Shown piece by piece: positions 6,348 to 18,913 of a DNA stretch of 64,000 bases. This DNA comes from an uncultured Candidatus Saccharibacteria bacterium. GTDB taxonomy: Bacteria > Patescibacteriota > Minisyncoccia > UBA6257 > 2-01-FULL-56-20. The first letter of the stretch is position 1; each line of letters starts with the position of its first letter. Both the position numbers and the translations under genes were made by a program. Location of the stretch: contig CAZYEL010000001.1 in assembly GCA_964646415.1 (NCBI GenBank), positions 394 through 64,393 on the forward strand, written 5' to 3'. Under the pieces are notes generated by a model. That model saw only the letters and a program-made list of their open reading frames with translations, did not search any database and was not told the origin of the DNA.

Positions 6348-6374
6348 GGCGGAGTGTTGCAAAACCGAACCCCA

Positions 6375-6406
6375 GGGCTACACTTAAGAGGTAGCCTGTT
6401 TTATTT
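6375..6406 (+). terminator. rho-independent terminator after rpsA
   Basis: Stem 'ggctac acttaagag gtagcc' followed by 'tgttttatttt'. Confidence 0.6.
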
Positions 6407-6407
6407 T

Positions 6408-7103
6408 ATGAGAAAAGATAAAGAAGTCGCGCTCAAGTTGCGTCTGGGAGGAAAAAGTTATACCGAAATAAGCCAGACTCTTGACGTACCAAAATCCACT
6501 CTTTCCGCATGGCTTTCTAAAGTCGTTCTATCTCCTCGTGCGAACGAGAGAATAGCTGCGCGCACACGAGAAAAATCTCTCATAAGCATCCTCCGCCATA
6601 ATAGGCAACAAACAACCGCTGCCCGGAAACGTGCTTCGGATACTCGGAAATTAGCGGCGAGTTTCATCGGGAGACTGTCGGACCGAGACTTACTCATCCT
6701 TGGCGCTGCGCTGTATTGGGCAGAAGGATACAAAAGATTGAAGTGGAGGAAAGGCAAGGAGCTGACGGCTCACCCTGTGTCGCTTACGAACTCAGACCCG
6801 TTTCTTGTACAAGCATTCCTCAAATTCCTCCGGGGGAACATGGGGGTGCACAATGAGAAAATAAAAGCTGGCGTGCGCATATTTCAACATCATAACGAAC
6901 AAGAGTTATTGGATTTTTGGCAACGCATTACTGATATCCCACGAAAGAACTTTACAAAAACGTACGTGGGAATCAGCCAGTCGAGCAAAGGGAAACGGCC
7001 ATTCAATCGGCTACCGTATGGGACACTTCAAATCAACGTTTCCAGCACTCCTCTCTTTCATCAAATCATGGGCTATATTGAAGGATTGAAAGAAAACAGG
7101 TAA
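6408..7103 (+). CDS. HTH + LAGLIDADG-like homing-endonuclease-family protein (paralog 1)
   Basis: N-terminal helix-turn-helix 'GGKSYTEISQTLDVPKSTLSAWL' and a single LAGLIDADG-type motif 'LLILGAALYWAEGYK'. Paralog of 18156..18824. Ends 20 nt upstream of the intron-containing tRNA-Phe. Confidence 0.6.
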   Translation: MRKDKEVALKLRLGGKSYTEISQTLDVPKSTLSAWLSKVVLSPRANERIAARTREKSLISILRHNRQQTTAARKRASDTRKLAASFIGRLSDRDLLILGAALYWAEGYKRLKWRKGKELTAHPVSLTNSDPFLVQAFLKFLRGNMGVHNEKIKAGVRIFQHHNEQELLDFWQRITDIPRKNFTKTYVGISQSSKGKRPFNRLPYGTLQINVSSTPLFHQIMGYIEGLKENR

Positions 7104-7123
7104 GCTGGGTACTGCTAACGCAT

Positions 7124-7426
7124 GCCGCGGTAGCTCAGTGGTAGAGCATTCGCCTGAACTCTTCGGGCACCGATTCAGTAATGAATCGGCGAAAACTGGG
7201 TGAACTCGGGGAAACTTCTTTTTTAAAGAACAATCCCGAGCCAAGCCCCGACGCAAAATCGGGGAAGGTGTAGAGACTATCCCTTCGGGGAGTACTCTCC
7301 AACATGGGTCGGAGCGGAAGCGCCCAGCTCCCGTAATCGCACGGCGATTTTATGGGATGATGATATAGTCCAAACTTCGTAAGGAAGAGCGATTGGTCGG
7401 GTGTTCGATTCACCCCCGCGGCACCA
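7124..7426 (+). tRNA. tRNA-Phe(GAA) interrupted by a group I intron in the anticodon loop (encoded CCA)
   Basis: 5' exon GCCGCGGTAGCTCAGTGGTAGAGCATTCGCCT (7124-7155). 3' exon GAAGAGCGATTGGTCGGGTGTTCGATTCACCCCCGCGGCACCA (7384-7426). The acceptor stem is a perfect 7 bp, the T-arm is GGGTG/TTCGATT/CACCC, and the anticodon loop is CT-GAA-GA. Confidence 0.85.
7156..7383 (+). mobile_element. group I self-splicing intron (228 nt, no internal ORF) between tRNA-Phe positions 33 and 34
   Basis: Exon U33 precedes the 5' splice site. The internal guide sequence GGGC pairs with exon GCCU. Conserved R-like 'gtagagactat' and S-like 'gatgatatagtcc' elements form P7 (AGACUA/UAGUC). The intron ends with G (cgtaaG). 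Confidence 0.8.
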
Positions 7427-7484
7427 AAAAACTTCAAACTTCTCTGGCATTATTTTGATTTGAGAAAAGTTTCCTTGTTAAAAT

Positions 7485-8045
7485 CTATTGCAACGCGCAA
7501 TTTTTAAGATACATAGTTAAAACAGTGCGCCAAGCGATAACTCCAGAAAACCTAACTTTCTGTCCTATCTTTAGAGACGCAGCAGTTTTCTCCCAGTCTC
7601 CCGAAAAATCACAACTCAAATATGAGAACATATCCTTCTCATTCTTTGTAATCGAAACCGATATTGCATCACTAGAAAACTTATCCACGTCCAATACATA
7701 CCCCTCATCTTTTACAACCAACCCAATATACTTCTCAAAAACTCCTTCTTTCTCAAGGGATGTGCTTGATGATTTCTCTATCTCATTACGCAAAGAGAAA
7801 ACAGAGTACGGCAAGACACCAAGTTTTGAATCCTCTCTGCCGTTCGTCTCTGTAGAAGTGGGGGGAGTAAAGATTTGCTGGTAACTACCTATTGCAACAT
7901 TCTGCGCTGTGATCCCCCCACTCTGTTTTTCAGAAGAAACACCGCTCGAGTTTTCTCTCCCTATACCAAAAATATAGTAAAGCACGAGCGAGGCGAGTAC
8001 TGCTCCAAAGACTGCTACTGTCCAGGGATTTTTCAAGAACCACAT
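7485..8045 (-). CDS. hypothetical membrane-anchored protein in a low-GC (~42%) segment
   Basis: 186 aa with an N-terminal TM helix and no known motifs. Its GC is far below the flanking sequence, and it sits inside a tRNA cluster. Confidence 0.4.
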   Translation of the reverse strand: MWFLKNPWTVAVFGAVLASLVLYYIFGIGRENSSGVSSEKQSGGITAQNVAIGSYQQIFTPPTSTETNGREDSKLGVLPYSVFSLRNEIEKSSSTSLEKEGVFEKYIGLVVKDEGYVLDVDKFSSDAISVSITKNEKDMFSYLSCDFSGDWEKTAASLKIGQKVRFSGVIAWRTVLTMYLKNCALQ

Positions 8046-8087
8046 TGTTTTTATTCAGTATGATTTATCGAACTCGGTATAAACCCG

Positions 8088-8158
8088 TCGGGGAGCCGAG
8101 AATCGAACTCGGACTACGTGCTCCCAAAGCACGCGTACTACCACTATACGACTCCCCG
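8088..8158 (-). tRNA. tRNA-Pro(TGG)
   Basis: The reverse complement folds as CGGGGAG/CTCCCCG acceptor, anticodon stem CGTGC/GCACG, loop TTTGGGA and T-arm CCGAG-TTCGATT-CTCGG. No encoded CCA. Confidence 0.85.
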
Positions 8159-8241
8159 CTTTCGCTAACGCTTCGGTGAGGCAAAGCACCGCCTGCACTT
8201 CAAATTACGCTAATTTTATGCGAGAATCAACCGCGTCAGAA

Positions 8242-8313
8242 GCCCTCGTAGCTTAACGGATAAAGCAGGACTCTTCTAAGGTCTTGATGGGGGTTCAATT
8301 CCCTCCGAGGGCA
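8242..8313 (+). tRNA. tRNA-Arg(TCT)
   Basis: GCCCTCG...CGAGGGC acceptor, D-arm GCTT/AAGC, anticodon loop CTTCTAA, T-loop TTCAATT. Confidence 0.85.
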
Positions 8314-8321
8314 CATAGCGT

Positions 8322-9155
8322 ATGAAACTCATCTCGCTCAACATCTTCGGTGGCAAGCATTTTGAGCCGCTCATGGAGTTTGTCCGCAAGGAAGCGCCGA
8401 CAACGGACATCTTCTGTTTTCAGGAAGTGTTTCGCTCAAAAAGCAGCCGCATAGAGAGCCGTGGCATCCGCACACACCTTTATGAGGAGTTCGGGAAGGT
8501 TCTCGCCGACTTCCAAGGGTTCTTCGCCGCCGAGCAGGACGGATACGACTTTGAAGGCCCGGTGGATTTTGACATCTCAACGGGGCAGGCAACGTTTATA
8601 CGGAAGTCGATTCGCGTCGCATCAACGGAGGAAGTGTTCGTATATCGCGCCCGCAACACCGCGGGAAACAACGAAACCATCCCCGCGAACATGCTCTGCA
8701 CGCGCATCACCCAAGGAGCCAAAGCCTTCTCGGTCATAAACCTGCACGGCCTTGCGCATCCCCCCAAGGAACTCGCGCAGCTGGAGAAAATTCCCCACTT
8801 CCTCGGCCACCGCGACACCCCCGACCGCCTCGCGCAATCCGAGAAAATTTTGGCGTTTCTCAAGAAAGAACGCGGCCTGCCTACCGGACAGGCAAGCGCG
8901 ATAATTCTCTGCGGGGACTTCAACCTCCGTCCGGAAACGCAAAGCTTTGCGATGCTTGAGGCGGGCATGCGGAACCTTATGCGCGAGTTCCACGTGGAAC
9001 GGACGCGCAGCCGCCACTCCCTTCATTTCGGCAAAGAGGACTTCGACCCGCTGGTGGATTACGTCCTCGTATCGCACGACGTGGAAGCGCATAGCTTAAC
9101 TGCGCCAGACATTGATATCTCCGACCACTTGCCGCTCGTACTGGAATTCAGTTAG
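8322..9155 (+). CDS. endonuclease/exonuclease/phosphatase (EEP) family protein
   Basis: 277 aa. 'LISLNIFGG' near the N-terminus, 'ILCGDFNLRPET' and 'DHLPLVLEF' near the C-terminus are hallmark EEP motifs. Confidence 0.7.
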   Translation: MKLISLNIFGGKHFEPLMEFVRKEAPTTDIFCFQEVFRSKSSRIESRGIRTHLYEEFGKVLADFQGFFAAEQDGYDFEGPVDFDISTGQATFIRKSIRVASTEEVFVYRARNTAGNNETIPANMLCTRITQGAKAFSVINLHGLAHPPKELAQLEKIPHFLGHRDTPDRLAQSEKILAFLKKERGLPTGQASAIILCGDFNLRPETQSFAMLEAGMRNLMREFHVERTRSRHSLHFGKEDFDPLVDYVLVSHDVEAHSLTAPDIDISDHLPLVLEFS

Positions 9156-9169
9156 AATCTGGGAACTAC

Positions 9170-9241
9170 GCGCGCTTAGCTCAGTGGCAGAGCGACCCGT
9201 TTACACCGGGTAGGTCGGGGGTTCGATCCCCTCAGCGCGCA
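9170..9241 (+). tRNA. tRNA-Val(TAC)
   Basis: GCGCGCT...AGCGCGC acceptor, D-arm GCTC-AGTGGCA-GAGC, anticodon stem ACCCG/CGGGT with loop TTTACAC, T-arm GGGGG-TTCGATC-CCCTC. Confidence 0.85.
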
Positions 9242-9417
9242 CATGTTACAATAATTCCATGCTTCTCACTCGCCGCATCGCAACTTGGTCAAGTTTTGTA
9301 AAGATGTCCCTCCCCCCAACATCGAGAGGGTAGTTGCCAGCTCAACGCGCCGTCCGTTGAGCACCCGCCCTCTCTTGGAGCGGGTTTTCGTTTATTCACC
9401 ACCAACATGAAGGAAGT

Positions 9418-10032
9418 ATGGAATACAGAGCAGTCCGCAACCGGTGCGCAGCGATTCTTGATTCACTGTCGCTCCCCATATCGCAGAGCGATGCAATGGC
9501 AGTCCTCAACCAAAACGGATTCCGCGTCGTTGAAGAAACAAATCTCGTCGCGCTTGCAAGGAGATGCATCGGCACGTCCCGCTATCGCCGAGGCGCAAAA
9601 CCTTCGGAAGCTCCCGCAGTGGTCGACTGCTCGAGCTTCACAAAATGGCTCTACGGCCAGCGCGGAATTTGGCTACCGCGGAGATCGATACAACAGCGAG
9701 AACTCGGCGAACCTATCCCGCTCGAAAACGTTGCCGCGGAAGACCTCATATTCGTCTCCGGCAAAGTCGACTACTACATCACTGACCCCGCCGACGGAGT
9801 AGGGCATGTAGGAATCGCGAGCGGAGAAAACACCGTCATCCATGCTGCAAACAAAAAAACGGGAGTAATAGAAACTCCACTGCACCAGTTCATTGAAAAA
9901 AATATGTTCCGTGGCGCGCGGCGCTACATTCCGAAAAACAAGGAGGTGCTCACGTTTGAAACGCCGCCAGAACGGGAAATAGAGATTGCGGGCGACCTCC
10001 AATGGGTGATTCTGCAATCGCTGCCGCAGTAA
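9418..10032 (+). CDS. NlpC/P60 (C40) family cell-wall peptidase
   Basis: Catalytic Cys context 'DCSSFTKWLY' and downstream His 'GHVGIASG' are typical of the C40 papain-like fold. Confidence 0.65.
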   Translation: MEYRAVRNRCAAILDSLSLPISQSDAMAVLNQNGFRVVEETNLVALARRCIGTSRYRRGAKPSEAPAVVDCSSFTKWLYGQRGIWLPRRSIQQRELGEPIPLENVAAEDLIFVSGKVDYYITDPADGVGHVGIASGENTVIHAANKKTGVIETPLHQFIEKNMFRGARRYIPKNKEVLTFETPPEREIEIAGDLQWVILQSLPQ

Positions 10033-10095
10033 CGAAATCACGAAGGCGACCCCCTGAAGGTCGCCTTTTCTTTCCTGCGCGAGCGCACCCCCGCG

Positions 10096-11100
10096 TTATC
10101 GCGCCATGCTCTTCAAAACTTCAAGGTAGAGTTCCTCCACAATTCTCTCCTGCGCCCGTCCCGTCGCCGCATAGTGGTCGAGTCCCGGCGCGGCGTTTAC
10201 TTCAAGCACCCAGTACTCGTGCAGCTTCTCCGTGATGCTCCCCTTCACCATGAGGTCAACTCCGCAGAGGCGGAGCCCCATGTCGCGCGTGAGGCGCACC
10301 GCAATCCGGTGGAACGCCGGGTGTACGTTTTTCGTCACGTCCACGGAATCCCCTCCCGTCGAGAGATTCGCGTTGTCGAGCAAATAGATGCGCGCGCCCT
10401 TTGGAGGCACGGAGCGGAACGTGAGCCCCTGCCGCGCAAGCTTCAACGCAATACGCGGGTCATGCATTTTAATGCGTGTGTCGCGGCTCGCGGCGACGAA
10501 CCGACGCTGCTTCACTTGCAAAAGCTGCCGGATGGTGTGCTTCCCATCCCCCACCACATGAAGCGGGATGCGCTCATACGCCGATATCACCCGGCCATCA
10601 AGCACCACCACGCGATAATCCGTGCCACGCACCGGTTTCTGCACAAGCGCCACTCTGTCGCGGACAAACACGGCGCGCACGGCGCGGAAAAACTCAACTC
10701 TGTTGTATGCATACGCGACATTCGTCCCTTGGCTCCCGCTGTTCGGCTTTACCACCACCGGAAACCCGATGGTCTTTGCATAGCGGTATGCCGCATCAAT
10801 ATCCCGCCGCGACCCGATTGCCTTGCACCAGTCATACGAGAAAAATGCCCGTCCGGGAATCACGGGGTAGCCCATCCGCCGCATGAAAAAATTGGCGTAG
10901 TCTTTGTCTTTCGCGATGTCGGATGCGCCAAGCGGATTCAAGTCAAGACTCGAATAGCGGAAATAGCGCTTCCTGCCGTTCTTAAAAATTATCTGCCCGA
11001 CGATGTTCCACTCGGGCTCAAGCACCACGCGCGCCCCGATTTTCGGAGCGATTTTCTGCAACACCTTCCCCAAAAGCGGGGTCTGATAATTTCTTCGCAT
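10096..11100 (-). CDS. ATP-grasp family ligase (RimK/cyanophycin-synthetase-like)
   Basis: 'VVVKPNSGSQGTNV', 'DYRVVVLDGRVISAYER' and 'LCGVDLMV...VLEVNAAPGL' match ATP-grasp motifs. Confidence 0.6.
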   Translation of the reverse strand: MRRNYQTPLLGKVLQKIAPKIGARVVLEPEWNIVGQIIFKNGRKRYFRYSSLDLNPLGASDIAKDKDYANFFMRRMGYPVIPGRAFFSYDWCKAIGSRRDIDAAYRYAKTIGFPVVVKPNSGSQGTNVAYAYNRVEFFRAVRAVFVRDRVALVQKPVRGTDYRVVVLDGRVISAYERIPLHVVGDGKHTIRQLLQVKQRRFVAASRDTRIKMHDPRIALKLARQGLTFRSVPPKGARIYLLDNANLSTGGDSVDVTKNVHPAFHRIAVRLTRDMGLRLCGVDLMVKGSITEKLHEYWVLEVNAAPGLDHYAATGRAQERIVEELYLEVLKSMAR

Positions 11101-11118
11101 TGGAGATAGTTCTCCCGA

Positions 11119-11943
11119 TTACTTCTCGTTCAACGCGTAGAAATTCTCAAAAAGTTTCGCCACAAGGATAGGACCCGTGCCTCCGGGGGTAGGAGTATAT
11201 ACAACAGCTTCGAGCTTTAAGCTTTTAGCTTTAAGGGAATCAGGGTCGAAATCGCCAAGGAGTTTTCCGTCTACGGAGTCGTAGCCGAAATCAATCACGA
11301 GCGCATTTCCTTTAAGCATTGCTGCATTGAAAAGTTTTGCTTTGCCGACACCGGAAATTACCACGTCGCAATTCTTTAGTATGGCGAAATCCGCTCCGCG
11401 CCCCAGAATATAAAGCTCGCTCACCTTACGCATAAGCCAGACCGCAATGGGCTTTCCTATGAGCATCCCCGCGCCGATGACCACTGCCCGATTACCCTTC
11501 AAATCAAAGTTCGCGCACCGCAATACCTCTTCCACGGTGGCGACCGCAGGGTGGAGCACCTTCGCGCGATTGTTATAGTGTGCGCCCAGCGTCCGCTCAC
11601 TCAAGCAATCAGGGTCTTTCTCCGGCGGAATCGCATTCACGATGTATGTGGCGTTCAAGGGCTCAGGGAGCGGCAGCTGCACAATCACGCCGCCGCACGT
11701 TTTCCCCGCGGCGATTTTTCCCACTTCTTCCCGCAGCTTGTCGTTCCCGAGCGCGGGGTCGAGTTTATAGATGCGGTAGTCAATTCCCAACCCTTTCGCG
11801 GTGTCCTGTTTCAGCTTCTGGAAACTCGCGGACGCGGGGTCGTCCCCGATCAAAACCCCGGCGAAGAATTTCTTCGGCTTCGGTTGTTCTTTCAGCCGTG
11901 CGAGGAGTTCGGCGGCGATTTTTTTTCCGTCAATCACAATCAT
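11119..11943 (-). CDS. folD: bifunctional methylenetetrahydrofolate dehydrogenase/cyclohydrolase
   Basis: 274 aa with the conserved 'YTPTPGGTGPILVAKLFEN' C-terminal motif and the Rossmann 'VVIGAGMLIGKP'. Confidence 0.9.
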   Translation of the reverse strand: MIVIDGKKIAAELLARLKEQPKPKKFFAGVLIGDDPASASFQKLKQDTAKGLGIDYRIYKLDPALGNDKLREEVGKIAAGKTCGGVIVQLPLPEPLNATYIVNAIPPEKDPDCLSERTLGAHYNNRAKVLHPAVATVEEVLRCANFDLKGNRAVVIGAGMLIGKPIAVWLMRKVSELYILGRGADFAILKNCDVVISGVGKAKLFNAAMLKGNALVIDFGYDSVDGKLLGDFDPDSLKAKSLKLEAVVYTPTPGGTGPILVAKLFENFYALNEK

Positions 11944-12046
11944 CGAGTAAGTAGTAGGTAGTATGTGGTAGGTAGTAAAAAATGCAACAGTAGCGCTTGT
12001 TTTTGCCCATATTGCCCTACTACCTACTACTTACCACCTACTAGCG
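11944..12046. repeat. MITE-like element with imperfect terminal inverted repeats of (T)AGTAGGTAG units in the glyA-folD spacer
   Basis: Left arm 'agtaggtagtatgtggtaggtagt', right arm 'ctactacctactacttaccacctact'. The internal 'gcaacagtagcgcttgtttttgc' region has a T-tract. An exact 23-nt copy of the left arm recurs inverted at 17453..17475. Confidence 0.6.
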
Positions 12047-13297
12047 CTACGCATCGATCCCGGGCACGGGGAACTTGCGTGCAAACTCGGCAACGCGTGA
12101 TTTAATCTCCACAAGCTTCTCGTCACTCCCCCTATTCTGCAACGCTTCATCGATAAGCCCAGCAACGGTTTCCATGTCGGCTTCCGCAAGCCCCCGCGTC
12201 GTGACCGCCGGGGTGCCAAGGCGAACACCCGAAGGATCAACCGGCTTCCGGGGATCGTAGGGAATCATGTTTTTGTTTATGGAAATGCTCACCCGCTCCA
12301 GCGCACGCTCCGCTTCTTTCCCCGTAATCTGTTTGCTCCCAAACACATCCACAAGAAAGCTGTGATTGTCCGTGCCCCCCGAGATAACGCGATACCCCCG
12401 CTTGGTGAGGGCGACGGCGAATGCCCGTGCGTTCGTAATCACCCGCTTCGCATAATCCGCAAACTCCGGCTGAAGCGCTTCGCCGAACGCGACCGCCTTC
12501 GCCGCGGTAATGTGGTCGTGCGGACCGCCCTGAACGCCCGGGAACACCGCGCGGTCAATGTCTTTCGCAAATTTTTCTTTACACATGATAATGCCGCCCC
12601 GGGGACCCCGCAGCGTCTTGTGAGTCGTCGTTGACACCACATCGAAATACGGCACGGGGTTCTCAAGCTGCTTTCCCGCAATAAGCCCCGCGATGTGCGC
12701 AACGTCGGCAAACGTATACGCGCCAACCTTGTCCGCGATTTCTTTAAAGCGCTTCCAATCCAGGCTCCTGCTGTACGCGGAAAAACCGGCAAGTATCATC
12801 TTCGGCTTCTCGCGGAGCGCGATTGCTTCAACTTCATCCATATCAATCACTTCCGTATCGCGCCGCACCGTGTAGGGAATGATAGTATATAGCTTCCCTG
12901 AAAAATTGAGTGGGTGCCCGTGAGAAAGGTGCCCCCCCTGGTCAAGCGAGAATCCCAATACTTTATCACCCACCTTCAAGAGCGCCATGTACACTGCGAG
13001 GTTTGCCGGACTTCCCGAAAGCGGTTGGACATTCACGTGATCCGCGCCGAAAAGCTCTCTCGCGCGCGTTATGGCGAGCGTCTCCACTTCGTCAATAATT
13101 TCGTTCCCGCCGTAATAGCGTTTACCGGGGTACCCCTCGGAATACTTGTTAGTAAGCACGCTCCCCATCGCAGTCAATACTGCGCTCGAAACATAGTTCT
13201 CTGACGCGATGAGTTCGAGCCCCTCCTTCTGCCGTTTTTTTTCACGCTCGATGATTGCGGCTACCTCCGGGTCCTGTTGTGCAAGTGATGAATTCAT
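12047..13297 (-). CDS. glyA: serine hydroxymethyltransferase
   Basis: 416 aa with a PLP-binding region 'TTHKTLRGPRGG' and full-length SHMT homology. Confidence 0.95.
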   Translation of the reverse strand: MNSSLAQQDPEVAAIIEREKKRQKEGLELIASENYVSSAVLTAMGSVLTNKYSEGYPGKRYYGGNEIIDEVETLAITRARELFGADHVNVQPLSGSPANLAVYMALLKVGDKVLGFSLDQGGHLSHGHPLNFSGKLYTIIPYTVRRDTEVIDMDEVEAIALREKPKMILAGFSAYSRSLDWKRFKEIADKVGAYTFADVAHIAGLIAGKQLENPVPYFDVVSTTTHKTLRGPRGGIIMCKEKFAKDIDRAVFPGVQGGPHDHITAAKAVAFGEALQPEFADYAKRVITNARAFAVALTKRGYRVISGGTDNHSFLVDVFGSKQITGKEAERALERVSISINKNMIPYDPRKPVDPSGVRLGTPAVTTRGLAEADMETVAGLIDEALQNRGSDEKLVEIKSRVAEFARKFPVPGIDA

Positions 13298-13334
13298 ATC
13301 TTCATTATCATACTCATTCTTCTCCTCCCACCCA

Positions 13335-14066
13335 CTACTTCCCTTCTTTAATCTCCCAATCCATGTGCATCCGCGGGAGCATTGTCTCCGGCTTCCAGGT
13401 GAGTTTCAGTTCGTTTAAGTCTGAGCTTGCTTGATACTTCCCGCTGTCGGTCGCATAGTCCTTCGTGTTCGAAGTGAGTGGCGCCACTTCATAAAACACC
13501 ATCTGCCCGATGCGCCGCCCCACCACGAGCGGAATCGAAAAATTCTGGGAGTTGTTCGTCACTTCCATTGTCCACCGGTTGATGTACCCGATATCGCCCC
13601 ACCCCGCGTCTTTGCACACCTCGATGAAATTTCTGCCGAGCGACGAACGCGCGTACATTTTTGCGACGCAAATATCGCGCCCGCCGATGAACTCCTGCGT
13701 GTGCCCCAAAACCGTTTCCCCCGGCGCAAGGAGAACGATGCGCGCGCCGCGCGGGATGTTTTTGAACTTTTGGTTCAGCCGTCGCTCCACGACTTCCACC
13801 GCTTCCGCCTCGAAAGGGCCGTTCCAGACCGCCGCGGTAGACTCGGCATCGTACACATTGTGGATAGTCGCCCGCCCGCCCGGGTGCCGCTCGCGCCAAA
13901 ACCATGCACCAAGCGTCACATCGTAACTCGTCGTCTTCAGGTTCCGGTCCTCAAAGGGCTCGATAACAATCGTTCCCTGCTTCATATGCTTCAAAATCTG
14001 GTCGCGAGAAAGCAGCATGGAATAAGTTGGTTGCCGGTCGGCTAATTGGTTACAAGCGTACGGCAA
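13335..14066 (-). CDS. dcd: dCTP deaminase family protein (probable start MLLSRDQIL at 14021)
   Basis: 'SRDQILKHMKQGTIVIEP...SYDVTLG' and 'VLLAPGETVLGHTQEFIG' fit the dUTPase-like beta-barrel fold of Dcd. Confidence 0.6.
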   Translation of the reverse strand: MPYACNQLADRQPTYSMLLSRDQILKHMKQGTIVIEPFEDRNLKTTSYDVTLGAWFWRERHPGGRATIHNVYDAESTAAVWNGPFEAEAVEVVERRLNQKFKNIPRGARIVLLAPGETVLGHTQEFIGGRDICVAKMYARSSLGRNFIEVCKDAGWGDIGYINRWTMEVTNNSQNFSIPLVVGRRIGQMVFYEVAPLTSNTKDYATDSGKYQASSDLNELKLTWKPETMLPRMHMDWEIKEGK

Positions 14067-14090
14067 AAAAAGCCCCGCCGCAAGCCTGGG

Positions 14091-14729
14091 TCATCGGTTC
14101 TTGCTCGTCCAGAGGTTGTCCCACCATGCGGAAGGCTCCGTTTCGTAAATCGTTTTCCCGAGTTCTTTTGCCGACTTGAGTTTGAGTTTCTTGAGCTGCG
14201 CATTCGCGCGCAATTTACCCTTTCCTTCATAAAGCCACTTTACCGCTTCGCGGTTTCCCTGCCACTCGTACTCGCGGAGAAGGAGGATCTCGTCCAAAAG
14301 ATCCGCGTCTTTCGCAATAACCGCTTCTTTTGTCTTCCTCGCTTCGTATTCCTGCGCGAACACATGTACGTCGCCGAATGGCAGTCCGCTGAGCTGTTCC
14401 TCGATTATTTCGTCGTTGAAAATCTTTACATACCGCTTATGCACCCAGTTATGGTCGTTGCTCCGCGCCTCGCCCAAGTCGTGCGTGAGCGCCATCATCA
14501 CCACTTTGTAGGGATCGACTTTCTCCTTTTTCGCAAGCGCCCATGCAATCAAGGCTACGCGAAAAGAGTGGGAGGCGATGTTGTCCGACATGTCGTCGCT
14601 CAAAAGCGTCTGCCGGTGCACGCGCGAAAGCTTTCGGAGCGTGCCCGCCTCGAAAAGGAAATTCGCGATTTTTTGGTCGTTCGTGAGCCGAAGGTTTCGC
14701 CGCTTGGTCATGGAAGTAGGGTAACGCAT
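14091..14729 (-). CDS. HD-domain 5'-deoxynucleotidase (YfbR-like)
   Basis: HD motif 'HSFRVALIAWAL...THDLGEARSNDHNW'. Confidence 0.65.
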   Translation of the reverse strand: MRYPTSMTKRRNLRLTNDQKIANFLFEAGTLRKLSRVHRQTLLSDDMSDNIASHSFRVALIAWALAKKEKVDPYKVVMMALTHDLGEARSNDHNWVHKRYVKIFNDEIIEEQLSGLPFGDVHVFAQEYEARKTKEAVIAKDADLLDEILLLREYEWQGNREAVKWLYEGKGKLRANAQLKKLKLKSAKELGKTIYETEPSAWWDNLWTSKNR

Positions 14730-14757
14730 TCCGTCAGCTTGTTACACCGCTCTGCTT

Positions 14758-15171
14758 TCATAAAAGTGCCGAGAGGTTTCCGTTCAAAATCATCGGCTGC
14801 ACCGCTTCAAGCTCCGCGCGGTACGAAATATCAGGCAACGGGTTTACGCAACATAGTTTCTTCTTCAGCACATGCGCAAACGCCATCTCGATAAGAGTGT
14901 TGCCGCCGATGTATCCGGGGATACTTTTTTTCTCGGGATTCACCACCAATACCGCATCATACGTTTTCATCGCCTCATAATACCCGCGGATAAGGTCGTC
15001 CTCGATTTTCCGCCGGGCTTTTTCCGAAGAAGACGCGTCCAGCCCCTCCCACTCGCCTAAGTGCTTCACGCCTTCGGGGATCTCTACTTCATGCCCTTGC
15101 TCAACCAACTGATTCTTGGCTTTCAAGATATCGCTGGCCGCACTGATTGACCCACATATGATGACTTTCAC
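14758..15171 (-). CDS. nucleoside 2-deoxyribosyltransferase-like (PF05014-like) protein
   Basis: 137 aa. 'MKVIICGSISAA...' is a Rossmann-like N-terminus typical of the NDT/Rcl family. It starts 1 nt downstream of tRNA-His. Confidence 0.4.
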   Translation of the reverse strand: MKVIICGSISAASDILKAKNQLVEQGHEVEIPEGVKHLGEWEGLDASSSEKARRKIEDDLIRGYYEAMKTYDAVLVVNPEKKSIPGYIGGNTLIEMAFAHVLKKKLCCVNPLPDISYRAELEAVQPMILNGNLSALL

Positions 15172-15172
15172 T

Positions 15173-15247
15173 TGGGGTGCCCAACGGGAATCGAACCCGT
15201 GACGCCGCTGCCACAGAGCGGAGTTTTACCGCTAAACTATGGGCACC
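15173..15247 (-). tRNA. tRNA-His(GTG) with encoded G-1 and CCA
   Basis: Reverse complement is G-GTGCCCA...TGGGCAC-C-CCA. Anticodon loop CTGTGGC. The G-1:C73 pair is diagnostic of tRNA-His. Confidence 0.85.
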
Positions 15248-15365
15248 ATGCGCAAAACAGTGTAGATAATTTTGGCATTATCCGCAACCTCCCTTGTTTT
15301 GAGCCTCGTTTTTTCGTATGCTTAACCCGTCCTAAGTTCTAATGGCTAATTTCTAATCACTCCCC

Positions 15366-17198
15366 ATGTCCAACGTCGCCAAAAATGTTCTCTGGGCTAT
15401 CGTCACCCTGTTTTTTGTGTCCCTCGTGTTTTCTTCCTTTGCAGGGAACGCCCCCTCGCCTGAAAAATTAAGCTTGAGCCAACTCGCGCAGCGCGTGGCC
15501 GCAGGCGAGGTAAAAGAAATCGCCGTGAACGGCGATGACCTTGTCATCAAACTCCAAAATGACAAGACTGCCAATTCGAAAAAAGAAACGGAAGCGGGAC
15601 TCACGGAAACTTTCAAAAACCTGGGCGTGTCCGCCGACGCGATTCAAAAAGTAAGCGTGACCGTGCAGGGCCCTTCGGGGTTCCAATTTTGGGCGGGTAT
15701 TCTTATCCCCACGCTTCTTCCTATTTTCGCCATCGGCTTCTTCTTCTGGCTTATGTTCCGGCAGGCGCGCACGGGAGCAAGCCAGGCGTTCAGCTTCGGC
15801 CGGTCAAACGTCCGCCTTACCGCACCCGACAAGGAGAAAGTGCTTTTCAAGGACGTCGCAGGGCTCAAGGAAGCGAAAGAAGAACTTTTTGAAGTCGTCG
15901 ACTTTCTCAAAAACCCGAAGAAGTTTCTCGACCTCGGCGCGCGCATTCCCCGCGGCGTGCTTTTGATGGGCCCTCCCGGCACGGGGAAGACGCTCGTCGC
16001 GCGGGCAGTCGCAGGCGAGTCAAGCGTTCCTTTCTTCCACCTTTCCGCCTCAGAATTCGTGGAGATGTTCGTAGGCGTGGGCGCCTCGCGCACGCGCGAT
16101 GCGTTCGCCGTGGCGAAAAAAGCCGCACCCGCGATTCTCTTTATCGACGAGATTGACGCCGTCGGCCGCCAGCGCGGCGCGGGTTTGGGCGGCGGGAACG
16201 ACGAGCGAGAGCAAACCTTGAACCAAATCCTTGTCGAGCTCGACGGCTTCGACCGCGACACGCGCGTCATCGTGCTTGCGGCGACAAACCGTCCCGACAT
16301 CCTTGACCCCGCGCTTCTCCGGCCCGGACGATTCGACCGGCGCGTAGTACTCGACCTCCCCGACCTCAATGACCGCGAGGCAATACTTAAAATTCACGCG
16401 CGGGGAAAAGCAATCGCCTCCTCGGTAGATCTCCGAAAAGTTGCCGTACGCACTCCGGGGTTTTCCGGCGCAGACCTTGCCAATCTAATGAACGAAGGGG
16501 CGATTCTTGCCGCGCGGGAAAATAAGAAAGAAATTGGCCAAAACGAATTCTTCAGCGCCGTCGAGAAGGTACTCCTCGGCCCCGAGCGGAAAAGCCGCGC
16601 CATCAGCCCCCGCGAGAAAGAAATCACCGCGTACCACGAAGCAGGGCACGCCCTTGCTGCCGCATCCCTTAAAGACGCCGACCCCGTGCATAAGGTTTCC
16701 ATCATCAGCCGCGGTATGGCGGGCGGCTACACCATGAAACTCCCCATCGAGGAACAGCACCTCCGCACGCGGCGGCAATTCCTCACCGACCTCGCTATGA
16801 TGATGGGCGGCTACGTGTCGGAAAAACTTACATTTGGCGACGTTTCAACCGGCGCCTCAAACGACTTGCGGCAAGCGACGGAACTCGCACGGCGGCTTGT
16901 CACCAAATACGGCATGAGCGAAATGGGACCCCAAACCTTCGGCAAAGCTGAAGAGCTCGTGTTCCTCGGGCGCGAGATTGCCATGGAAAAAGACTACTCG
17001 GAAAAAGTGGCGGCACAGATTGACGAAGAAGTGCGCTCCTTTATCACGGGCGCCTACGCCACCGCCGAGAAGCTTTTGAAGACCCACAAGGCGGCGCTCA
17101 AGGCAATCGCCACAACGCTTGTCGAGAAAGAAACGCTCGAGCAGGAAGAATTCCTCGCAGTTTTGAAACCCTTCAAAATCAAACCGGTGGCGGCATAG
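15366..17198 (+). CDS. ftsH: ATP-dependent zinc metalloprotease FtsH
   Basis: 610 aa. AAA+ Walker A 'GPPGTGKT', second region of homology, Zn-binding 'HEAGHAL' and two N-terminal TM helices. Confidence 0.95.
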
Positions 17199-17256
17199 TG
17201 TGATGCACTAAAGGGAGTGCAGAGTACTTCCTTCCGAAAACTCTCAATGTCTAACT

Positions 17257-17330
17257 TGGTCGGCCTGGAAGGAATCGAACCTTCGTCAGACGTGTATAAG
17301 ACGTCGGCTTTACCATTAAGCTACAGGCCG
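17257..17330 (-). tRNA. tRNA-Ile(TAT) (anticodon UAU, AUA-reading); encoded CCA
   Basis: Reverse complement is CGGCCTG-TA-GCTT-AATGGTA-AAGC-C-GACGT-CTTATAC-ACGTC-TGAC-GAAGG-TTCGATT-CCTTC-CAGGCCG-ACCA. All four stems are Watson-Crick. Confidence 0.75.
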
Positions 17331-17452
17331 GCACTCCTATTTCTACCCGCCCTCGCTGCCAATTTCAAGACAATCGCTCTGCCGTCGAGCTGCGGACCGT
17401 TTGTCTTCTAGTGGTACCCTCGCCAGCGCGAATTTTAAGGCAGCTCTGTGTC

Positions 17453-17475
17453 GCTACCTACCACATACTACCTAC
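17453..17475. repeat. solo inverted copy of the 23-nt TAGTAGGTAG-type repeat arm
   Basis: 'ctacctaccacatactacctact' is the exact reverse complement of 11951..11973. Confidence 0.8.
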
Positions 17476-17478
17476 TCT

Positions 17479-18174
17479 CTATTGCTTTACTATCGCGTCA
17501 AACCGGTCCATTGCCTGACCAGCTTGGCCATTGAAGGTGTTGATTGCCTGCACTTCCGCGTTAATCTGGTTCACCAGCACTGCCACCTGCTTCGCCGAAC
17601 CCGGCACTCCATTGAATCGGTTCTTCAAGGCCTGAAGAAGATCGCTCAAGTAGTTGCTGTAATTAATGAGCTTGTTCAGAAGCGCAAGACGGCTCGCGAT
17701 AGACTCAAGCGCCGCTTGCCGCGCTTCGAACGACTGGATCCCCGAGAGCGCTTTCGTCATCACGCCAATTTCATCCGCGAGCGCCACCGCTTGATTGCGG
17801 ATATCCTCGCTCTTTTTTGCGGCATCAAACGTGATGGCGAGCGCGTCGGAGAATTTCCCCTCCTTATCGAGCGCGCTGATTTTCTCAATATTTTTCCTGG
17901 AATCATTCGAAAGGTTCACAATATTTTGCGCAATCAGCGCACCCCGAAGACGGGCATCCTGAAACTCCGAAGGAATCCCTTGGGAAAAAGAAAAGAGGCG
18001 GCTCGCGCCATATCCCCCCAGCACGATTACAGCAAATACTGCAAATATTGTGGTTCGACGCGACATACGTTTGCTCTCTTTGTACCGCATCCCGGGGAAA
18101 AACGCAACAAGAAGCGGAAGCCGAACTGGCTCATACGGTATGGTATAATGGTGATATGGTAAGAAATCCAACAC
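17479..18174 (-). CDS. hypothetical membrane-anchored protein (probable start MSRRTTIFAV at 18066)
   Basis: An N-terminal TM helix followed by a helical, Ala/Leu/Gln-rich domain. No catalytic motifs. Confidence 0.4.
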   Translation of the reverse strand: MLDFLPYHHYTIPYEPVRLPLLVAFFPGMRYKESKRMSRRTTIFAVFAVIVLGGYGASRLFSFSQGIPSEFQDARLRGALIAQNIVNLSNDSRKNIEKISALDKEGKFSDALAITFDAAKKSEDIRNQAVALADEIGVMTKALSGIQSFEARQAALESIASRLALLNKLINYSNYLSDLLQALKNRFNGVPGSAKQVAVLVNQINAEVQAINTFNGQAGQAMDRFDAIVKQ

Positions 18175-18824
18175 TACGAGAACAAGCGGGAAAGTTGAGG
18201 CAAGACGGATACTCGTACAACATGATCAACGAAAAAATCGGGGTTTCTAAAAGCACGCTGAGCGATTGGTTCAGAGATAAACCCTTTACCCCCAACCAAG
18301 AGGTTCTCCAGCGAATCCAATATGGCCCGATAAAGTCTGGGGCGTTGAAACATAATAAGAAAGTTGAAGAAGTCCGGAAGCTCCGCGAGGAAGGGGTACG
18401 AGAAATCGGAGCACTCACGAGGAGAGATTTGTGGTTACTGGGAATAGGACTCTATATCGGTGAAGGGTCAAAAACTCACGACATAATACGAGTTATCAAC
18501 TCCGACCCAAAGGTCATTAAATTAATGATGCGCTGGTTTCAAGAGGCGTGTAATGTAGAAAAAGGAAATATCACAGTGAGACTCTTCCTCTATCCGGACA
18601 ACGATCTGCGCGAGTGCACAGAATATTGGCGAAAAATTACCGGCCTCCCTTTCGCAAGTTTTAGGAAACCTCAAATCGACCAGCGGGCGAATAAATCCGA
18701 CTTAAATAAGAGAAAGTTGCCTTACGGCACTGCGCACGTTACCATTGTGTGCGGGAATGACCCTTCTAAAGGAGTGAGGCTCCATAGAAAAATAATGGGC
18801 TGGATCGCAGGCGCACTTTCCTAG
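18156..18824 (+). CDS. HTH + LAGLIDADG-like homing-endonuclease-family protein (paralog 2)
   Basis: HTH 'GYSYNMINEKIGVSKSTLSDWF' and LAGLIDADG-type motif 'LWLLGIGLYIGEGSK'. Extended -10 'TGgTATAAT' at 18141-18149. Ends 15 nt upstream of tRNA-Gly. Confidence 0.6.
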   Translation: MVRNPTLREQAGKLRQDGYSYNMINEKIGVSKSTLSDWFRDKPFTPNQEVLQRIQYGPIKSGALKHNKKVEEVRKLREEGVREIGALTRRDLWLLGIGLYIGEGSKTHDIIRVINSDPKVIKLMMRWFQEACNVEKGNITVRLFLYPDNDLRECTEYWRKITGLPFASFRKPQIDQRANKSDLNKRKLPYGTAHVTIVCGNDPSKGVRLHRKIMGWIAGALS

Positions 18825-18839
18825 CTAGAGAAAACAAAC

Positions 18840-18910
18840 GCGGGCGTAGTATAGTGGTAGTACGGAACCCTTCCAAGGTTCAGGTACGGGTTCAATTCCC
18901 GTCGCCCGCT
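18840..18910 (+). tRNA. tRNA-Gly(TCC)
   Basis: GCGGGCG...CGCCCGC acceptor, anticodon stem GAACC/GGTTC with loop CTTCCAA, T-arm ACGGG-TTCAATT-CCCGT. No encoded CCA. Confidence 0.85.
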
Positions 18911-18913
18911 CCC

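Follow-up and report, generated by a model that had tools for sequence, protein, structure and literature searches.

Clade-specific linkage of a family of putative LAGLIDADG-like homing-endonuclease genes to tRNA genes in Patescibacteria

LAGLIDADG enzymes are known to have evolved from homodimers to single-chain forms, some LAGLIDADG proteins are group I intron maturases, and the same scaffold occurs in WhiA, a domesticated regulator that carries two degenerate domains without catalytic residues together with a C-terminal helix-turn-helix (HTH) and is nearly universal in Gram-positive bacteria. Among free-standing homing endonucleases, SegB of phage T4 is a GIY-YIG enzyme encoded in a tRNA gene cluster, recognizes the TψC motif of tRNA genes and drives the preferential inheritance of itself and of the neighboring tRNA genes (PMC2330249). 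Free-standing endonucleases also take part in collaborative (trans) homing, which has been established in two phage systems, including one at the insertion site of the cyanophage psbA intron (PMC3984707). Here we describe two related open reading frames, ORF1 and ORF2, in a 64,000-nucleotide (nt) stretch of DNA from an uncultured Candidatus Saccharibacteria bacterium (contig CAZYEL010000001.1, positions 394 to 64,393; hereafter the window), each located immediately 5′ of a tRNA gene on the same strand. A moderately probable reading is that both come from a large superfamily, so far without annotation, of LAGLIDADG-like homing endonucleases encoded by free-standing genes, in which every clade is specialized for a single tRNA gene.

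The two genes and the tRNA genes beside them are arranged as follows; loci used for comparison are designated by L and a number.

6408..7103, + strand: ORF1, 231 amino acids (aa), composed of an HTH (residues 2-36), a long helix (43-86) and a LAGLIDADG-like core (92-229)
6690..6734, + strand: codons of the ORF1 motif LLILGAALYWAEGYK, Glu106 being at 6723..6725
7104..7123, + strand: spacer of 20 nt separating ORF1 from tRNA-Phe and matching neither a promoter nor a terminator
7124..7155, + strand: tRNA-Phe(GAA) exon 1, ending at U33, 33/33 identical to L161, L163 and L167
7156..7383, + strand: group I intron (Rfam RF00028) of 228 nt, with no ORF
7384..7426, + strand: tRNA-Phe exon 2, including the encoded CCA
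18156..18824, + strand: ORF2, 222 aa, with an architecture like that of ORF1
18429..18473, + strand: codons of the ORF2 motif LWLLGIGLYIGEGSK, Glu103 being at 18462..18464
18825..18839, + strand: spacer of 15 nt between ORF2 and tRNA-Gly
18840..18912, + strand: tRNA-Gly(UCC)

An earlier note on this DNA had described two related genes at these positions, each with an N-terminal HTH and a single LAGLIDADG-type motif and each ending just 5′ of a same-strand tRNA gene, and all of these points were confirmed. By sequence comparison, ORF1 and ORF2 are true paralogs, with 28% identity over the full length (BLASTP, E 1e-25) and a match between the two family profiles at an hhalign probability of 100% (E 2e-44), and they are the sole two paralogs inside the window. 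Each founds a big orthologous group with 45-67% identity over many lineages of the candidate phyla radiation (CPR), and a hypothetical protein of Candidatus Liptonbacteria (Patescibacteria, CPR), HYY10_02660, has the same sequence as ORF1 (100% identity). The HTH was recognized by Pfam HTH_3 in ORF2 (24.2 bits against a cutoff of 23) and by weaker HTH matches in ORF1, corresponds to three short helices at residues 2-36 of the AlphaFold2 model, and is matched in the superfamily profile by the PAI HTH of Sleeping Beauty (E 1.8e-4).

Linkage to tRNA genes, and its specificity for each clade, is a rule for the whole family. For this comparison we took 80 genome loci of the ORF1 family and 80 metagenome loci of the ORF2 family, and used as controls other ORFs from the same tRNA-rich loci, scored for tRNA genes within -40..+100 nt of the stop codon. 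A same-strand tRNA gene lay beside the stop codon in 77 of the 79 evaluable ORF2-family loci, every one of them tRNA-Gly(UCC), at a distance of -15..+75 nt (median 5). The corresponding count for the ORF1 family was 68 of 75, at -21..+34 nt (median 10), and at several of these loci the stop codon was inside the tRNA itself. When both families were pooled, 145/154 evaluable loci were linked to a tRNA gene versus 40/449 control ORFs, indicating that the association, whose failure in further paralogs the earlier note had named as a reason to abandon its idea, does hold. The partner in the ORF1 family was an intron-containing tRNA-Phe at 35 loci or more (at least 35, read from the sequence), with the insertion always after U33, an intronless tRNA-Phe at 14 loci and tRNA-Gly(GCC) at 20 loci, and rarely tRNA-Pro(UGG) (2 loci) or tRNA-Val(UAC) (1 locus). 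The phylogeny that the earlier note had proposed as a check gave the same picture: in a neighbor-joining tree of 165 members the clades follow tRNA identity, with the Gly-GCC clade beside the Phe-intron clades, and remoter paralogs sit 5′ of tRNA-Arg(UCG), tRNA-Arg(CCU) and tRNA-Val(GAC). The linked tRNA genes were nearly always occupied (Gly-UCC 76/78, Gly-GCC 20/25), and bystander tRNA genes at the same loci seldom were (Arg-UCU 0/44, His 0/20, Pro-UGG 2/47). Flanking protein genes are not conserved, the largest neighbor cluster being present at 8/70 loci, and in six other genomes ORF1 and tRNA-Phe, as one block, are inverted with respect to the S1 gene. The gene cassette, consisting of its own promoter and the ORF, is located directly at the 5′ edge of its tRNA gene. 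In members linked to tRNA-Glu(UUC) (L201:460-1271; L189:594-1351), the tRNA is directly upstream of the gene, not downstream, and the orientation rule varies between clades.

Relatives lacking ORF1 were reached via the S1 gene upstream of it. The syntenic Liptonbacteria relatives L161, L163/L164, L165/L166 and L167, in which S1 is 79-88% identical, contain no family member and retain the same GyrA-MBL-S1 neighborhood, with an Exo_endo_phos gene downstream in most of them. This is the comparison at the same tRNA gene that the earlier note had suggested, and it reveals both presence and absence; with four syntenic close relatives free of the gene, ORF1 is dispensable. The spacers in L163 and L167 are short (83 and 77 nt) and unrelated, and similarity to the window starts at the first bases of the tRNA. 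L161 keeps the final ~45 nt of ORF1 within an 85-nt block that is 84/85 identical to the window, and in a tblastn search FTHVLSCIEGLKEN of L161 aligned with ORF1 residues 217-230; this fragment is a deletion remnant. The 28 nt of the ORF1 3′ end and the spacer (window 7076-7123 versus L161:6258-6305) match at 47/48 positions, well above the 80-85% identity that L161 and the window have in S1, the MBL gene and the intron; this points either to a recent gene conversion or to constraint, for instance on a leader or promoter of the tRNA. A pseudo-palindrome across the 5′ junction of the tRNA in L163 was considered as a target site and dropped, as by eye it was not shared by L167.

Two further genes were seen in L163. 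An ORF encoding a 93-aa GIY-YIG domain (L163:6640-6921) is located about 100 nt downstream of the same intron-containing tRNA-Phe, in the absence of ORF1, and is by its sequence a second, putative endonuclease-type gene at this locus; a PhdYeFM/ParE toxin-antitoxin pair (L163:10361-10874) is located inside the syntenic block in this one relative only.

Degenerate copies are not confined to L161, as the family gene of L034 has an in-frame stop codon. The phylogeny of the family genes, in a small sample, disagrees by sequence identity with the host marker S1: L023 and L061 have S1 proteins that are 93% identical and family proteins that are 51% identical, and for L009 and L023 the values are 85% and 57%. 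A scan limited by its pattern found 296 relatives among 185,579 species genomes, and the distribution of the family is patchy. Presence and absence at one site, degenerate copies and a phylogeny incongruent with the host, which together characterize a mobile element, were thus all observed. As a separate observation, L023 (2914-3780) and L061 differ at the tRNA-Phe locus in the lineage of the family gene, in the orientation of tRNA-Phe and in the presence of the intron, and this locus is a rearrangement hotspot.

The C-terminal core of approximately 135 residues matched no Pfam, PHROG or NCBIfam model, the HTH alone being recognized. It contains the motif GxxLY[WI]xEG, in which Glu and Gly are kept in 165/165 members, followed by Lys three residues on in 162/165; the earlier note had raised the prospect of a catalytically dead motif without acidic residues, and the acidic Glu is in fact invariant. 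We compared profiles of the ORF2 family (A2) and of 110 diverse superfamily representatives (A6) with all PDB sequences, and outside the HTH the sole match was the second (C-terminal) LAGLIDADG domain of I-DmoI (E 4e-3 and 8e-4), where GLYIGEGSKT..IRIINSDP..WF of the family is aligned with GLYVAEGDKT..LRIWNKNK..WL. The hhalign probability for the family and I-DmoI was 59-78%, with an I-DmoI query of which residues 91-146 were verified by the PDB alignments. In the alignment numbering, Glu and Lys of the family correspond to Glu117 and Lys120 of I-DmoI, and PDB entries name the I-DmoI mutants E117A and K120M. As in enzymes of the I-DmoI and I-CreI type, the motif helix ends in Glu-Gly with Lys three residues later, and the strand and subsequent ‘NSDP..I..F..FL’ helix follow as in I-DmoI residues 97-146. 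One domain per chain would imply a dimer, as in I-CreI-type homodimers, and tandem-fused two-domain forms exist as well. The predicted secondary structure (helix, strands, helix, strand, inserted helix and loop, strand, helix) would fit a LAGLIDADG core bearing an insertion. Unlike those enzymes, the family has the N-terminal HTH, a 44-residue linker helix, and a further helix with a loop that separate strand 3 from strand 4. Its genes are found in cellular genomes, bordering tRNA genes on the 5′ side, and not within introns or inteins.

The superfamily is large and unannotated, and by profile comparison occurs in ultra-small bacteria, some actinomycetes and virus-classified contigs; our literature searches found no description of it. 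A profile search of 1.84 billion cluster representatives (50% identity) gave 6,873 matches at E <= 1e-3, of which 3,954 were at <= 1e-10 and 794 at <= 1e-30. In three distant representatives chosen at random, a tRNA-Phe was downstream of the gene, a tRNA-Pro was downstream, and a tRNA-Glu was upstream, respectively. Members also include tandem fusions of the form HTH-core-HTH-core (424-576 aa), three of which, in Actinomadura atramentaria, A. parmotrematis and A. flavalba, are located 43-101 nt upstream of tRNA-Gln(UUG)-glmU-prs and parallel the route of LAGLIDADG enzymes from homodimer to single chain. Ten IMG/VR contigs (17-497 kb) encode relatives, with the motif G..LYW.EG.K kept in 8/10; of those scanned for tRNA genes, 9/9 contained them, and the family gene abuts a tRNA gene in 7, on either side and on either strand. 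No homolog was found in GenBank phages, and therefore the viral classification of these contigs needs caution.

The signals upstream of the two genes are as follows.

6365..6370, + strand: CCGAAC box upstream of ORF1
6376..6396, + strand: palindrome GGCTAC-N9-GTAGCC, read from the sequence
6399..6407, + strand: T-run following the palindrome and abutting the ATG of ORF1
18121..18149, + strand: ORF2 promoter, with CCGAAC at 18121..18126 and TGgTATAAT at 18141..18149

The extended -10 promoter that the earlier note had assigned to ORF2 is present and is conserved across the ORF2 family. It consists of the boxes CCGAAC and TGgTATAAT separated by 17 nt, with the ATG 6 nt past the -10 element, and 65 distinct upstream regions of the family gave the consensus TTGAAC-N17-TGnTATGAT-N5/6-ATG. 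The position of the ATG 5-6 nt past the -10 element implies a leaderless ORF2 mRNA. In many upstream regions of the ORF1 family, read from examples and not quantified, a (T/C)(T/C)GAAC box is located 5′ of a TATACT/TATAAT-like element, and inverted repeats of at least 7 bp overlap the -10-like TATACT in 14% of the loci versus 2.8% of shuffles. The hairpin and T-run at 6376..6407 may serve as terminator of S1, as an operator or in both roles. The stretch from the ORF to the tRNA contained neither a promoter conserved by position nor a conserved terminator, generic scans being uninformative, and co-transcription followed by release by RNase P is therefore the simplest inference. The -10/start region of ORF2, GTATAATGGTGATA (~18143-18156), and the D-arm of the tRNA-Gly, GTATAGTGGTAGTA (~18846-18859), are alike at 11/14 positions; the resemblance might be fortuitous, both being AT-rich, or might reflect an operator mimicking the target, as is known for I-TevI.

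The existence of one clade per target, the constant position, the presence and absence with a remnant, and the incongruence with the host together form the pattern of free-standing homing-endonuclease genes, and the near-invariant catalytic-type residues, the virus-classified contigs and the tandem-fusion series lead to the same conclusion. We regard the family as a real and largely undescribed tRNA-linked variant of free-standing homing endonucleases, with presumed nuclease activity. According to this explanation, the enzyme, which has a single nuclease-like core and would need to dimerize to cut both strands, would recognize the conserved sequence of a tRNA gene in genomes without the cassette and break the DNA there, and repair would copy the cassette in. 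Insertion of the cassette, or for tRNA-Phe possibly the group I intron, would disrupt the site and protect the carrier genome. The tRNA would probably be transcribed from the cassette promoter and freed by RNase P, and its dependence on that promoter would slow the loss of the cassette. SegB is, by analogy, a direct precedent for a free-standing endonuclease that targets tRNA genes. SegB and the present genes are both free-standing among tRNA genes, with family relatives in tRNA arrays of virus-classified contigs; the difference is that SegB belongs to another catalytic family, and that here there are many clades, each with one tRNA species and a fixed position and orientation, mainly on bacterial chromosomes.

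Several results weigh against this explanation. With both AlphaFold2 models, Foldseek found no significant LAGLIDADG structure (E about 0.8 for I-DmoI), its best matches being OmpA-like or IspF folds (E about 0.01), and structure comparison did not confirm the alpha-beta-beta-alpha-beta-beta-alpha fold, strands 3 and 4 of the predicted core being separated by an additional helix and a long loop. The profiles A1 and A5 failed to reach I-DmoI in the PDB, I-CreI was unmatched by hhalign, and no Pfam LAGLIDADG model matched. Alleles that contain ORF1 and alleles that lack it have the same tRNA exons, so that the exons offer no explanation of how a carrier would avoid cutting itself. Conservation between species is limited to the tRNA side of the insertion point, and therefore classical two-sided homing across species would be hard. 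Both genes are fixed within the window species, in that all contigs with identical S1 or TyrRS proteins carry ORF1/ORF2 and no polymorphism was seen, and the good conservation of each clade (45-65% identity) would also fit a host function. The proposal in the earlier note that these are free-standing homing-endonuclease genes is supported in part, by the location outside the intron, the tRNA link, the presence and absence, the incongruence and the invariant acidic residue, whereas the LAGLIDADG fold was not confirmed by Foldseek and the match to I-DmoI is borderline.

A more far-reaching form of the homing-endonuclease explanation is put forward tentatively, as plausible but falling somewhat short of probable: the superfamily (~6,900 clusters at 50% identity) would consist of active homing endonucleases that occur in Patescibacteria, Actinomadura and large virus-classified contigs and of which every clade has one tRNA gene as its target, at the 5′ edge; the cassette would have taken over the transcription of the essential tRNA (promoter capture) and so become hard to lose, and switches of target, for example from Phe to Gly-GCC, would make new clades. 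If the enzymes are active, cellular tRNA genes would be the systematic targets of a large homing-endonuclease family with one clade per tRNA, whereas such targeting has so far been described chiefly for individual phage examples, T4 SegB among them. This could explain the frequent rearrangements around tRNA genes of Patescibacteria, a part of the ‘hypothetical HTH protein’ content of their tiny genomes, and the persistence of tRNA introns without ORFs. It would also provide hundreds of natural nucleases with long sites and a modular HTH-plus-core design, and the probable dependence of an essential tRNA on the promoter of the element would give a selfish gene a simple means of being retained. 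Since members occur in culturable Actinomadura, the hypothesis is directly testable.

The earlier note had also suggested collaborative homing. Applied to ORF1, the enzyme would cut the intronless tRNA-Phe at U33/G34, and the intron without an ORF would protect the carrier and be copied with the gene ~50 bp away. The intron was found as the note had described, without an endonuclease ORF; ARAGORN overlooks the tRNA-Phe because the intron splits it. The Rfam score was 61.1 bits against a gathering threshold of 50, as read from the sequence the last base of the 5′ exon is U, paired with G in P1, and that of the intron is G, and the intronless tRNA-Phe of L167 is 100% identical to both exon 1 (33/33) and exon 2 (45/45); every class feature of a group I intron in the anticodon loop of tRNA-Phe could thus be recognized in the sequence. 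The anatomy of the window is exactly that expected for collaborative homing, at least 35 ORF1-family genes lie 5′ of a tRNA-Phe with the same insertion, and the two phage systems mentioned above provide precedents. However, L161, L163 and L165 have the intron and L167 does not, all without ORF1, and therefore intron and gene vary independently. Moreover, the gene is found 5′ of intronless tRNA-Phe at 14 loci, and the Gly-UCC and Gly-GCC tRNA genes beside their clades are intronless according to ARAGORN. The intron is therefore neither necessary nor sufficient family-wide, and collaborative homing cannot be the general mechanism; unlike the described systems, intron and gene occur independently here and most clades have no intron partner. 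What is left of the suggestion is its application to ORF1 as a special case, which we consider possible but unlikely.

The main rival to the homing-endonuclease explanation is that these genes encode domesticated DNA-binding proteins, with an HTH and an inactive or repurposed LAGLIDADG-like scaffold, that are inherited vertically and act, like WhiA, as autoregulated cis factors for the adjacent tRNA operon. The good conservation of each clade and its fixation in the population are consistent with this, as are the conserved promoter of the ORF2 family, the palindromes overlapping the -10-like element upstream of the ORF1 family, the probable single transcript of ORF and tRNA, and the unconfirmed nuclease fold. 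WhiA and the family share the combination of a LAGLIDADG-type scaffold with an HTH DNA-binding domain. However, the two features that mark WhiA, loss of catalytic residues and a near-universal vertical distribution, were not found: Glu is invariant and Lys nearly so at positions matching the catalytic residues of I-DmoI, and four syntenic close relatives lack the gene, one of them with a remnant. The HTH is N-terminal instead of C-terminal, the distribution is patchy in the pattern-limited scan, the family phylogeny is incongruent with the host marker, and relatives are found on virus-classified contigs. A domesticated regulator is thus disfavored by the dispensability of the gene and by the retained active-site-like residues, and we rate it as slightly less likely than collaborative homing at ORF1.

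An RNA-directed role, in which the protein would assist splicing of the tRNA-Phe intron in the manner of a maturase or act in the processing of the co-transcribed pre-tRNA, would fit the position of ORF1 next to an intron-containing tRNA but is very improbable, in that most clades are paired with intronless tRNAs, relatives splice the same intron without the protein, and the N-terminal HTH is of the DNA-binding type. A small transposon or insertion sequence (IS)-like element, directed by its HTH protein to the upstream side of tRNA genes, is more improbable still and was rejected: the HTH resembles those of transposases (Sleeping Beauty PAI, as above, and IS630/IS3 family HTH matches) and ORF1 is bracketed almost exactly by an inverted repeat of 12 nt, complementary at 11/12 positions (6395..6406 and 7089..7100), but no transposase catalytic domain was detected with Pfam, PHROGs or NCBIfam, there is one copy per target without multicopy spread, and the bracketing repeat is absent family-wide, its observed frequency equaling that of the shuffled control, and is probably due to chance.

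Two minor observations concern tRNA genes of the window. Five independent assemblies of the window species (among L169-L175) end at 7147/7151, immediately 5′ of the position of intron insertion, and two assemblies end at the 3′ end of tRNA-Phe (7425); these breaks are likely to result from co-occurring relatives that have identical tRNA exons and a different intron and flanks. A UAU anticodon is unusual in bacteria, where AUA is normally read by a modified CAU tRNA. ARAGORN assigned a tRNA-Ile with this UAU anticodon to window positions 17257-17330 (- strand), and the same tRNA recurs in other Patescibacteria loci (L024, L026, L030, L048, L056 and L058).

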